In this document: positions 42,647 through 45,249 of the stretch, piece after piece
Layout of the letters: each line of letters begins with the position of its first letter
How positions within the stretch are numbered: the first letter of the stretch is position 1
Origin: Corythoichthys intestinalis
Taxonomy: Eukaryota
Reading direction: 5' to 3'
NCBI RefSeq assembly: GCF_030265065.1
Contig: NC_080408.1
Coordinates: 22,855,480-22,919,479 of the forward strand
DNA: 64,000 nucleotides
Position numbers and translations under genes: made by a program
The notes under the pieces: model-generated
Databases searched by the model: none
What the model was told of the DNA's origin: nothing
Seen by the model: the letters and a program-made list of their open reading frames with translations, nothing else

Positions 42647-42709
42647 GTAGCACTCTCCCAGCACAGTCCTGAGCTTTCGGCTAGTAATGGCAACACGGAA
42701 GACAGCAAG
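42647..42709 (+). CDS. Repeat-exon gene, acidic module (VALSQHSPELSASNGNTEDSK)
   Basis: Acceptor ttttctag|GTA, donor AAG|gtaggc. 63 nt. Confidence 0.6.
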
Positions 42710-42783
42710 GTAGGCATGCAATAATCCCTTTGTTCACACAAATTCAGTTATCCTCTTATGCTAATCTCACATGTCCAAAACAG

Positions 42784-42855
42784 GAAAAGTCTAGTGTTTT
42801 AGGCGGGATGCTGAAAAAAACTCCCAAACGGGGACACGCACGCAGACCCTCACAG
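42784..42855 (+). CDS. Repeat-exon gene, basic module (EKSSVLGGMLKKTPKRGHARRPSQ)
   Basis: Acceptor aacag|GAA, donor CAG|gtgaca. 72 nt. Confidence 0.6.
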
Positions 42856-42946
42856 GTGACATGCAATATTAAGATCACTTGTACAGTAGTAACATATGCA
42901 AGTTACGTGTTATTTTAAATTAAAAAAAAACATTTTGTACTTTTAG

Positions 42947-43000
42947 GATCTTCTAGATATTGACATGTTCGCCAGCAATAACAATGTGAACAACAACAAA
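42947..43000 (+). CDS. Repeat-exon gene, module DLLDIDMFASNNNVNNNK
   Basis: Acceptor ttttag|GAT, donor AAA|gtaagt. 54 nt. Confidence 0.6.
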
Positions 43001-43124
43001 GTAAGTAGTGACACTGAGCATATTATAGGGGCACCTCACGAAGACTGTTTTGAACATGATACTAAGATGTTCTAGCGCAATTTCAAGATTATTTAGCTCT
43101 GGAGTTAATGCTGAATGTGTTTAA

Positions 43125-44750
43125 CGGAAAATAGAGTTGACTGTTCCTTTTGAAAAAAATTAGCATATTGTGGTAAAGTTCATTATTTTCTGTAATGTAC
43201 CGATAATCATTAGGCTTTCATATATTTTAGATTCATGACACACAACTGAAGTAGCACAAGCCTTTTATTGTTTTAATATTGAGGATTTGGGCAAAAAAGT
43301 CAAGAAAAAACAAAAATCCCAATCTCAAAAAAATTAGCATATCATGAAAAGGTACTCTAAAGAAGCTACTAACCTAACCATCTGAATCTACGAATTAACT
43401 CAAAACCCCTGCGAAAGATTCCTGAGGATTTTAAAAACTCCCAGCCTGGTTCATTACTCAAAACCGCAATCATGGGCAAGACTGCCGACCTGACTGCTTT
43501 CCAAAAGGCCATCATTGACATCCTCAAGCAAGAGGCTAAGACACACACAAAAATTTCTGAGCGAATAGGCTGTCCCCAGAGTGCTGTATCAAGGCACCTC
43601 AGTGGGAAGTCTGTGGGAAGGAAAAAGTGGCAGGAAACGCTGCACAACCAGAAGAGGTGACCGCACCCTGACAAAGATTGTGGAGAAGGGCCGATTCCAG
43701 ACCTTGGGGGACCTGCAGAAACAGTTGACTGAGTCTGGAGTAGAAACATCCAGAACCTCCGTGCACAGGCGTGTGCTGGAAATGTGCTACAGGTGCCGCA
43801 TTCGCCAGGTCAAGCCACTTTTGAACCTGAAACAGCCTGACCTGGGCTACAGAGAAGCAGCACTGGACTGTTGCACAGTGGTCCAAAGTACTTTTTTCAG
43901 ATGAATGCAAATTTTGTATGTCATTCGCAAATCAAGGAGCCATAGTTTGGAGGAAGACTGGGGAGAAGGAAATGCCAAAATGCCTGAAGTCCAGTGTCAA
44001 GTACCCACAGTGAGTGATGGTCTGGGGTGCCATGTCAGCTGCTGATGTTGGTCTACTGTATTGTATCAAGGGCAAGGTCAATGCAGCTAACTGCCAGGAG
44101 ATTTTGGAGCACTTCATGCTTGCATCTGCTGAAAAGCTTTATAGAGGTTAAGATTTCATTTTTCAACACGACCTGGCACCTGCTCACAGTGCCAAAACCA
44201 CTGGTAAATGGTTTACTGACCATGGCATTACTGTGCTCAATTGCCATCTCTCCTGACCTGAACCCCATAGAGAATCTGTGGGATATTGTGAAGAGGAAGT
44301 TGATAGAAACCAGACCCAACACTGTGGATGAGTTTAAGACCGCTATCGAAGCATCTTGGGCCTCCATAACACCTCAGCAGTGCCACAGGCTGATTGCCTC
44401 CATGCCACGCTGCATTGAAGCAGTCATTTCTGCAAAAGGATTCCCGACCAAGTATTGAGTGCATAGCTGATATAATTCATTGAAGGTTGACTTTTTTTGT
44501 ATTAAATAAAAACACTTTTTTTGTATTGGTTGGATGAAATATGAAATTTTTTAGAGATAGGGATTTTTGTTTTTTCTTGACTTTTTTGCCAAATATCATC
44601 ATTACTAAAACAATAAAAGGCTTAACTTCTTCAATTGTGTGTAATGAATCTAAAATACATGAAAGTCTAATGTTTGTCAGTACATTACAGAAAATAATGA
44701 ACTTTATCACATTATGCTATTTATTTGAGAAGGACAAGTAGAGTTGCCTT
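43125..44750 (+). mobile_element. Tc1-family transposon with long (~200 bp) terminal inverted repeats and a frameshifted transposase on the + strand (43472-44458)
   Basis: 43155-43360 matches the reverse complement of 44530-44720. ORFs MGKTADLTAFQKAIIDILKQEAKTH.., ..GDLQKQLTESGVETSRTSVHRRVLE.., ..[30 protein letters not shown]. Exact termini are uncertain. Confidence 0.8.
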
Positions 44751-44918
44751 GTCACTTTTGGCTCTCACAAAACTCTTTTGGACATGACTGCAACATTTTC
44801 TGATCCATTTCTGAAGTCCTTCATTTGATTGCTTTTGGACAACTTTAGGACCCTATTGGACTTGAATGCAACACTGCTGTAGTTGTTCTCAAGAACACTG
44901 TCATTGGGTTTATTTTAG

Positions 44919-44990
44919 GCCCCGGTCTCGCAGCATAATCCAGAGCTTTCGGTCAGCAACGGCAGTTTAGATGACTCCAAGCCATCCAAA
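44919..44990 (+). CDS. Repeat-exon gene, duplicated acidic module (APVSQHNPELSVSNGSLDDSKPSK)
   Basis: Paralogue of 42647-42709. Acceptor ttttag|GCC, donor AAA|gtgagt. 72 nt. Confidence 0.6.
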
Positions 44991-45060
44991 GTGAGTGCAC
45001 TCTTTTACGGTTAGCTCACACCAGCTAGCCTCCTATGCTAAACTTGCTTGTACCGAGCAG

Positions 45061-45129
45061 GATAAATCGAGTGTGTTGGGCGGGATACTGAAAAAACCTA
45101 AACGTGGACATGCACGCAGGCCCTCACAG
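45061..45129 (+). CDS. Repeat-exon gene, duplicated basic module (DKSSVLGGILKKPKRGHARRPSQ)
   Basis: Paralogue of 42784-42855. Acceptor gagcag|GAT, donor CAG|gtgaca. Confidence 0.6.
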
Positions 45130-45192
45130 GTGACAATACAGTAGTAGGATTACTCTTATACAGTGTTGTAAAATATCCTATTTTTGTTTTAG

Positions 45193-45249
45193 GATCTTCT
45201 GGACATTGATCTGTCTGCCAGCAACAACAATGTGAACGACAACAATAAG
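45193..45249 (+). CDS. Repeat-exon gene, duplicated module DLLDIDLSASNNNVNDNNK with a GC donor
   Basis: Paralogue of 42947-43000. Acceptor ttttag|GAT. Donor AAG|gcgagt is a GC-AG type or an inactivated site. Confidence 0.5.

Follow-up and report, generated by a model that had tools for sequence, protein, structure and literature searches.

Two closely similar blocks of three short exons lie on either side of a Tc1-like element in the 64,000-nucleotide stretch of Corythoichthys intestinalis DNA analysed here (the window), and the second block ends in a GC rather than a GT splice donor. This arrangement raises the question of how the two blocks came about, whether the transposon took part in it, and whether the GC site is a working donor or one on its way out. 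The explanation that best accounts for the observations overall, to which we give a probability of roughly 65%, is an old duplication, a later transposon insertion and an independent T-to-C change that left a GC donor likely to be working.

The duplicated block belongs to an ApoL-like gene of teleosts, and the window is collinear with the loci of two pipefish, Stigmatopora nigra (L001) and S. argus (L002), with the order TEP1-like, studied gene, ApoL, and in both Stigmatopora loci the ApoL gene directly follows the repeat gene. An Etheostoma homolog (P0011) contains a Pfam ApoL domain (PF05461; E 1e-36) together with the N-terminus and repeats of the window gene, in that the start MxRYDNLDLxLECDGG and the K-box/S-box repeats precede the domain. 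The motifs LFEQLEEF...LMEWWNTVE...WEDTP in the window, at 63424-63822, match the pre-ApoL motifs of P0011. Two points depart from the ApoL family: the predicted ApoL domain of the window gene would fall past position 64000, outside the window, and the Stigmatopora annotations assign the repeats and the ApoL portion to two separate genes. In the collection searched for homologs of the exon chain, no ortholog exceeded 80% identity, and no gene model or transcript of the window species was present.

The N-terminal region of this gene is an array of small symmetrical phase 0-0 exons, each encoding one short motif. Two motif types alternate: a basic one (GGMFKK...SQ), for which the full basic-hydrophobic pattern is x-K-x-G-x-F-G-G-M-F-K-K-x-P-K...S-Q, and an acidic Ser-rich one (ELSASN.SLSD), for which the full pattern is (D/E)-D-L-S...E-L-S-A-S-N-x-S-L-S-D. 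A Pfam search of the repeat region yielded no known domain. The two blocks, A and B, and their neighbours in the array are as follows.

42193-42252 (+), array exon upstream of block A, K-box
42350-42412 (+), array exon upstream of block A, S-box
42485-42550 (+), array exon upstream of block A, K-box
42647-42709 (+), exon A1 (VALSQHSPELSASNGNTEDSK), acidic Ser-rich S-box, phase 0-0; S. nigra ortholog L001 11227-11289
42784-42855 (+), exon A2 (EKSSVLGGMLKKTPKRGHARRPSQ), basic K-box; orthologs L001 11353-11424 and L002 11425-11496
42947-43000 (+), exon A3 (DLLDIDMFASNNNVNNNK), donor AAA|gtaagt; orthologs L001 11502-11555 and L002 11577-11630
44919-44990 (+), exon B1 (APVSQHNPELSVSNGSLDDSKPSK), A1 plus three codons, which are also present in both Stigmatopora B1 exons
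45061-45129 (+), exon B2 (DKSSVLGGILKKPKRGHARRPSQ), A2 minus one codon; 87-91% amino-acid identity to Stigmatopora B2
45193-45249 (+), exon B3 (DLLDIDLSASNNNVNDNNK), A3 plus one codon; 95% amino-acid identity to Stigmatopora B3
47164-47235 (+), exon after B3 (ESAGMFSGMFKKSPKPLKEKTKSQ), acceptor tctcatttccag; joined to the B3 donor in the Stigmatopora models (...NDNNK|ESAGMF...)

The coordinates, translations and flanking splice dinucleotides that an earlier note had assigned to the six block exons all agree with the sequence. Each exon has phase 0, a length that is a multiple of 3 nt and an AG acceptor. The amino-acid identity between the blocks, put by the earlier note at about 80%, is 81% (50 of 62 aligned residues, counted by hand from the alignment), and tblastn within the window pairs A2 with B2 (5e-10), A3 with B3 (1e-6) and A1 with B1 (2e-6), with an E value of 2e-16 for the concatenated blocks. 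Exon order, phases, orientation and spacing match between the adjacent blocks, although the conservation of intron spacing that had been claimed amounts to similarity and not identity (74 nt for A1-A2 against 70 nt for B1-B2, and 91 nt for A2-A3 against 63 nt for B2-B3).

The three-exon blocks are a true tandem duplication of about 0.6 kb at the DNA level, as had been claimed, because the similarity extends beyond the exons: alignment reveals it in all four non-coding segments, upstream, downstream and in the two internal introns (z = 3.9 to 6.5, 1000 shuffles). Biased peptide composition, in a gene built throughout from related motifs, could make convergence or low-complexity composition look like duplication. 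The chance that the blocks are alike for this reason is negligible, since the introns are similar too and exon order, phases and spacing agree, and convergence is rejected on the intron similarity. Additionally, the RGHARRPSQ / DLLDID pair occurs in the window only in blocks A and B and once in each outgroup. Tandem exon duplication in animal genes has reportedly been described by Kondrashov & Koonin (2001) and Letunic et al. (2002), and the copies in the window conform to it in being adjacent, in the same orientation and phase, and with residual intron similarity; they differ in that a three-exon block rather than a single exon was copied. Mutually exclusive use of the duplicated exons does not hold in Stigmatopora, where protein models P0001 and P0002 carry both blocks in series, which makes the duplication a repeat expansion of a modular region.

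The syntenic loci of both Stigmatopora species hold both blocks, and the protein models of both species, which are computational gene models, contain them. The diagnostic codon indels (B1 +3, B2 -1, B3 +1) are common to the window and both Stigmatopora species, and a single block is present in the genomic loci of two non-syngnathid fish, Tautogolabrus adspersus (L003) and Collichthys lucidus (L004). Paralogs A and B within the window are separated by a dS of ~1.26 and a dN of 0.11 (dN/dS ~0.09), and this sequence divergence indicates that the duplication is old and that both copies are constrained. Between the window and Stigmatopora, block B has a dN/dS of 0.3-0.4, and the introns are 73-75% identical. 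For B3 alone the value against S. nigra is 0.07, which derives from ~7 substitutions averaged over the whole time since the Stigmatopora split and is uninformative on the period after the T-to-C change at its donor, which could be recent. From this distribution, a segment of ~0.6 kb with three array exons was tandem-duplicated in the common ancestor of the window species and Stigmatopora, after the lineage of that ancestor had split from other percomorph fish, and both copies have been retained since as coding exons.

The element between the blocks has the following parts.

43140-44739 (+), decayed Tc1/mariner element of the IR/DR type, 1600 bp, with terminal inverted repeats and with putative transposase remnants in the orientation of the host gene
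43140-43337 (unstranded), left terminal inverted repeat, with two direct copies of AAAAAAATTAGCATAT (from 43153 and from 43327)
44543-44739 (unstranded), right terminal inverted repeat, 87.5% identical to the left repeat
43132-43139 and 44739-44746 (unstranded), left and right copies of an 8-nt direct repeat, TAGAGTTG, abutting the element

The earlier note had described a Tc1-like element with long inverted repeats at 43125-44750, exactly between the blocks. The long repeats are borne out, with arms of 198 nt, and so is the position between the blocks, within the A3-B1 intron (139 nt past the A3 donor and 179 nt ahead of the B1 acceptor), but the limits of the element are 43140 and 44739. We read the direct copies of AAAAAAATTAGCATAT as putative transposase-binding repeats. 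Fish Tc1/mariner elements of the IR/DR type have the Sleeping Beauty-type architecture, and the window element resembles them in its length of ~1.6 kb, in its inverted repeats of ~200 bp, each with two short direct-repeat copies, and in its putative remnants of a Tc3-type HTH and a DDE region, including an 11-letter motif. Unlike them, its open reading frame is broken in several frames, and the Pfam scores of the fragments stay under the curated cut-offs (HTH_Tnp_Tc3_2, E 8e-6, 26.4 bits against 31.5; DDE_3, E 3e-5, 24.2 bits against 28.6). These two matches fall on fragments in different frames, the pattern expected of a decayed copy. When the window and the Stigmatopora loci were searched for a second copy of the transposon, only a 31-nt DDE fragment, at 24130-24160, came up.

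The flanks are a further point of difference from the fish elements, being an 8-nt direct repeat with no simple TA duplication. A plain TA duplication is expected of a Tc1/mariner insertion. TA is present on both flanks of the element but inside the copies of TAGAGTTG, and the 8-nt repeat does not fit a canonical insertion of this family.

When the duplication and the Tc1 insertion are dated against each other across species, the duplication is the older event: both Stigmatopora species have the two blocks without Tc1. S. argus (L002 11753|11758) and S. nigra both lack segment 43113-44766 of the window, and the Stigmatopora A3-B1 introns, of 240 and 276 nt, are free of the element. Because it is absent from both Stigmatopora loci, the transposon is, on this comparison, younger than the duplication and unrelated to its origin. 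A transposon-mediated duplication was rejected in view of this order of events. The 1.6-kb element inserted much later and in the window lineage only, in sense orientation between the two copies, and then decayed.

Five of the six block exons have a GT donor, and the exception is the one that the earlier note had pointed out at the end of block B (AAG|gcgagt at 45249|45250). The two donor sequences downstream of B3 that bear on its splicing are these.

45250-45255 (+), GC donor gcgagt after AAG, from gtgagt by a +2 T>C change
45289-45294 (+), weak in-frame cryptic GT donor CCT|gtaagg, which would extend B3 by 39 nt (ASINAIFGSLFNP)

The orthologous donor in both Stigmatopora species is AAG|gtgagt, which differs from that of the window only by the +2 T>C change, and the donor is GT in both outgroups too. 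Given this perfect ancestral and orthologous state, the GC at B3 is, by comparison of the sequences, derived through a T>C substitution at +2; independently of the transposon insertion, the donor that closes block B passed from AAG|GTGAGT to AAG|GCGAGT. The seven positions other than +1 and +2 all agree with the consensus (MAG|GYRAGT), +3 being G, and the flank score of 8.4 bits is the best among the 16 donors of the gene (weight matrix). Within 45193-45400, no rival donor exceeded a flank score of 3 bits. The predicted partner acceptor, tctcatttccag|GAG at 47152-47163, has a pyrimidine tract and AG. B3 is a phase 0-0 exon and is followed by an exon that begins in phase 0 at 47164, so that the frame is kept across the GC site; the orthologous junction in the Stigmatopora models, NDNNK|ESAGMF, uses a GT donor. 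A U12-type intron was rejected, as the donor reads gcgagtat and has no /RTATCCTT motif.

GC donors are rarer than GT donors and usually workable. They account for ~1% of human introns (PMC3167603), and the +2T>C variants that stay competent for splicing have consensus at the other positions and descend from a strong GT site (PMC12805630). The window donor resembles those of U2-type GC-AG introns in having GC at +1/+2 with full consensus from -3 to -1 and from +3 to +6, in facing a downstream acceptor with a pyrimidine tract and AG, and in deriving from a perfect GT by the +2 T>C route described for functional GC donors (PMC12805630, PMC3167603). It differs from them at +3, where it has G instead of the A of gcAagt, the signature of proven functional GC donors (PMC12805630), and its junction is a predicted one. 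Since all the remaining U1-pairing positions match the consensus, this donor has most likely stayed functional as a U2-type GC-AG site, and it would pair with the acceptor at 47163|47164. Its efficiency may have dropped, which would make exon B3 partly optional, and skipping B3 would be harmless to the reading frame since the lengths of these exons are all divisible by three.

That the +2 T>C change has instead crippled the donor, so that B3 or the whole of block B is skipped, the protein is shorter but in frame and B3 is turning into a pseudo-exon, is unlikely but credible. Most +2T>C changes abolish normal splicing, with wild-type transcripts persisting in ~15-18% of all such variants (PMC8375439), the G at +3 departs from the A of proven functional GC donors, and skipping would be tolerable for B3 (57 nt) as for the whole block (198 nt), both multiples of 3. 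However, a site that is perfect consensus except at +2 belongs to the class reported to remain functional, the frames of B1-B3 are open, their acceptors intact and their lengths exactly those of the orthologs, and at exon 2 the same gene retains another GC donor that is conserved. It is very improbable that splicing has moved to the cryptic donor at 45289, adding 13 residues (ASINAIFGSLFNP) to B3: this site lies 39 nt downstream, in frame and with no intervening stop codon, but its exon side is weak (C at -2 and T at -1), it scores ~1.8 bits against 8.4 at the GC site (hand calculation, weight matrix), it is absent from Stigmatopora, and the added peptide is hydrophobic, unlike the remaining array. 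Somewhat less far-fetched, yet still improbable, is that the species normally has GT and that the C at 45251 reflects a rare allele or an error of sequencing or assembly. The C is a single-base difference from the orthologs and the window itself cannot validate the base, but the surrounding sequence gives no hint of low quality, and at the high divergence of the window from Stigmatopora one extra substitution is unremarkable.

The second GC donor of the gene lies upstream of the blocks.

40647-40715 (+), coding exon 2 (DRYSNLEIDLECDDGGGGDVA), with GC donor GCG|gcaagt at 40709|40710

The sequence of this donor is identical in the window and both Stigmatopora loci, whose gene models use the GC junction, and it is GT in the outgroups. 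The sequence context of the B3 site and the conserved GC donor at exon 2 together make use of the B3 site, which the earlier note had asserted, likely rather than proven, and the site is probably still spliced. We propose only tentatively, and regard as doubtful, that the gene has undergone two independent GT>GC donor conversions, an old one at exon 2 fixed across syngnathids and a recent, lineage-specific one at B3, the latter of which may create a regulated optional exon. If so, an optional B3 would offer a natural snapshot of the way in which a donor weakened after exon duplication gives rise to alternative splicing in the modular disordered region before the ApoL domain.

The phenomena at this locus are real but ordinary and open no new question; the locus is a clean, datable case of three such processes (exon-block duplication, intronic transposon insertion and GT>GC donor drift) in an intron-rich modular gene. 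Its main importance is for annotation, in that gene prediction which disallows GC donors would lose exons B3 and 2 or join them wrongly. The separation of the repeats and the ApoL portion in pipefish annotations may be a similar artefact.

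The six exons of blocks A and B have exactly the translations given in the earlier note and lengths that are all multiples of three, and the splice sites are as described there, with an AG acceptor on all six and a GT donor on every exon except B3, which ends AAG|gcgagt at 45249|45250.

Features of the block region, in window positions
40647-40709: coding exon 2, ending GCG|gcaagt at 40709|40710 (site through 40715)
42647-42709, 42784-42855 and 42947-43000: exons A1, A2 and A3 (block A)
43140-44739, forward strand (transposase remnants): Tc1/mariner relic with inverted repeats and sub-threshold Pfam matches
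44919-44990, 45061-45129 and 45193-45249: exons B1, B2 and B3 (block B)

In tblastn searches of the window, the sole strong matches of the block-A peptides are the corresponding block-B exons (E = 2e-6 for A1/B1, 5e-10 for A2/B2, 1e-6 for A3/B3; the concatenated block reaches 2e-16), and 50 of 62 aligned residues, counted by hand from the pairwise alignment, are identical, which agrees with the approximately 80% amino-acid identity previously claimed. Similarity confined to the exons had been named as the observation that would speak for convergence; instead, the pairwise alignment continues through the introns (A1-A2 74 nt and A2-A3 91 nt; B1-B2 70 nt and B2-B3 63 nt). Local alignment against 1000 shuffles gives z = 3.9 for the upstream intron, 6.5 and 3.9 for the internal introns and 5.2 for the downstream segment. 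Because all four non-coding segments align better than the shuffles, convergence is excluded, and the blocks are a tandem duplication of DNA that extends beyond exon similarity. The A-to-B offset of ~2283 nt leaves a duplicated unit of ~0.6 kb once inserted DNA is subtracted, which fits the Stigmatopora loci, where the offset is 585 nt in one and 624 nt in the other.

Both blocks are present in the same order in the genomes of Stigmatopora nigra and Stigmatopora argus, whose protein models carry them in series, and one block only is found at the locus in Tautogolabrus adspersus and Collichthys lucidus, both percomorphs from outside the syngnathids. The codon indels between the copies are common to the window and Stigmatopora (relative to A1, A2 and A3, respectively, B1 has +3, B2 has -1 and B3 has +1 codons), and exon lengths are identical across species, with flanking introns full of indels. 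Within the window, A versus B yields dS 1.26, dN 0.11 and a ratio of 0.09 (Nei-Gojobori); for block B, the window versus Stigmatopora gives dN/dS of 0.3-0.4 (0.21 for B2 and 0.07 for B3), from small counts of ~7 substitutions per exon. The agreement of orthologous blocks, codon indels, dN/dS and exon lengths shows that the duplication is old and conserved, and that both copies were already coding before the split of the window species from Stigmatopora and have stayed so. Exon A1 of S. argus (11318-11359 of its locus) is 21 nt shorter through an in-frame deletion (VALSQNNPELEDSK), which shows that the array tolerates losing motif sequence.

The Tc1-like element that the earlier note placed between the blocks at 43125-44750 is real, and its limits are corrected to 43140-44739. 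The inverted repeats measure 198 nt, share 87.5% identity and each contain two copies of AAAAAAATTAGCATAT, and the transposase remnants are broken over several frames, retain an 11-residue motif and give sub-threshold Pfam matches to a Tc3-type HTH and DDE_3. Other copies, sought in the window and the Stigmatopora loci to fix the termini, were not found. Instead of a plain TA, an 8-nt direct repeat, TAGAGTTG, flanks the element at 43132-43139 and 44739-44746; approximately 50 bp around the element is also without a counterpart in S. argus. The Stigmatopora A3-B1 introns (240 and 276 nt) match the window both before and after 43113-44766 and lack any sequence corresponding to that segment. Because both have an empty site, the insertion belongs to the window lineage alone and is far younger than the duplication. 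The cross-species dating suggested earlier thus places the duplication first, with the blocks shared with Stigmatopora and the Tc1 absent there; a younger element cannot have caused the duplication, and this role is ruled out by its absence from loci that have both blocks. That the element lies within ~100 bp of where the duplicated units meet is read as a coincidence, the pre-insertion intron being only ~300 nt. An AATAAA signal in sense orientation (44506-44511), near the 3' end of the relic and inside the host intron, could in principle lead host transcripts to be polyadenylated prematurely.

The orthologous B3 donor is AAG|gtgagt in both Stigmatopora and K|gtgagt in both outgroups, so the AAG|gcgagt of the window is derived from a perfect-consensus donor by one substitution, T>C at +2. 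The other seven positions all match MAG|g.ragt, and the site ranks first in flank score among the 16 donors mapped in the gene, as scored by a rough weight matrix. GC donors account for approximately 1% of human introns, with an enrichment among those that are alternatively spliced (PMC3167603), and ~15-18% of +2T>C changes are reported still to produce wild-type transcripts (PMC8375439). Those that preserve splicing come from strong GT sites with consensus elsewhere, and those that abolish it usually have at least two further mismatches (PMC12805630). At +3, GC sites proven to function usually carry A (AGgcaa; PMC12805630), whereas the B3 site has G, a caveat to the tolerated class in which the literature places it.

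Another GC donor, absent from the earlier note, is that of coding exon 2. Both Stigmatopora loci have the identical sequence (from 10064 in S. nigra, L001, and from 10077 in S. argus, L002), and the gene models there use the junction (...EVA|QKAALF...), whereas Tautogolabrus and Collichthys have gtgagt. The gene has thus already undergone another GT>GC conversion, older than that at B3 and kept in at least three syngnathid genomes.

The most likely history would comprise an old tandem duplication of the three-exon module, a later insertion of a Tc1/mariner copy into the inter-module intron followed by its decay, and a GT>GC change restricted to the window lineage, after which the GC-AG intron probably still works, perhaps more weakly. 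At least partial use of the B3 GC site is favored, with a probability of approximately 0.65. Skipping of exon B3 or of block B is rather unlikely; all exons are symmetrical, so the frame would survive whether B3 or the whole block is skipped partly or fully, and a weakened donor would cost little. It is improbable that the C at 45251 is a sequencing error or a polymorphism. Use of a cryptic donor in place of the GC site is more improbable still: the sole in-frame alternative, CCT|gtaagg at 45289, is weak and absent from Stigmatopora, and within 45193-45400 no competing GT or GC site exceeds 3 bits in flank score. The components (tandem exon duplication, an intronic Tc1/mariner relic and a GC-AG intron) are all textbook, and this particular instance appears to be undescribed. 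The locus is a neat worked example of donor drift, and its annotation needs to allow GC donors at 40709|40710 and 45249|45250.

Blocks A and B belong to a longer micro-exon array in which all exons are phase 0-0 and two types alternate.

Micro-exon types and a second gene that carries them
Basic exons: QKAALFGGMFKRSTKSTEPQ, DKGNMFKGIFKKQHKSSKEPTQ, ESAGMFSGMFKKSPKPLKEKTKSQ, EKVGLFGGMFKKPKIPNIARTKSQ
Acidic Ser-rich exons: DNLSISSELSKSNESLNDNTK, DDLSQTNELSASNENLSEGGPK
L001 30703-31174 and L002 26234-26430: second gene with basic (K-box) and acidic Ser-rich (S-box) exons

In the database search, the exon chain scored best against two 'uncharacterized' proteins from S. nigra and S. argus (79-80% identity), with weaker matches in other percomorph fish, and a Pfam search of the repeat part found no domain. 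An Etheostoma homolog (P0011) has the start MNRYDNLDLELECDGG and repeats as in the window gene, followed by a Pfam ApoL domain (E = 1e-36); pre-ApoL motifs matching it are present at 63424-63822, and in both Stigmatopora loci the annotated repeat gene is followed 60-182 bp later by the start of an ApoL gene. From these observations we infer an ApoL-like gene with a long modular N-terminal extension, probably disordered, and a predicted ApoL domain beyond the window end; the repeat part may need to be annotated with the ApoL part. The Stigmatopora annotations split the two at 21295/21355 in L001 (60-bp gap) and 16697/16879 in L002 (182-bp gap). For the corresponding window region (58310-63936), the repeats are joined to the pre-ApoL motifs in P0011 and a Collichthys homolog (P0007), and to the ApoL domain itself in P0011; the split models are probably one gene. 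Exons of the second gene include ENLSAQKELSASNDSLSE and EKGSAFSGMFKKSSKP; it is located a few kb past the ApoL gene in both loci, which indicates that the array exists in paralogous genes.

The window and both Stigmatopora loci are collinear (TEP1-like gene, then the ApoL-like repeat gene, then ApoL), and the exon order is fully conserved despite a ~3-fold greater length of the window (64 kb versus ~19 kb in S. argus), which indicates a genome much richer in repeats than that of Stigmatopora. Inside the upstream TEP1-like gene is a 911-bp tandem duplication (18117-19940), with a reported 300-nt core (18117-18416 and 19028-19327) that is 98% identical; 18528-18625 and 19439-19536, at the same 911-nt offset, both match a conserved S. 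nigra stretch (L001 5436-5534) that is possibly an exon. Short CCGATC-rich repeats (TTTTTTTGCTCCTGATCCGATCCCGATC and similar), which are probably fragments of another interspersed element, occur in two different introns of the ApoL-like repeat gene, at 45683-45891 and 51440-51520.
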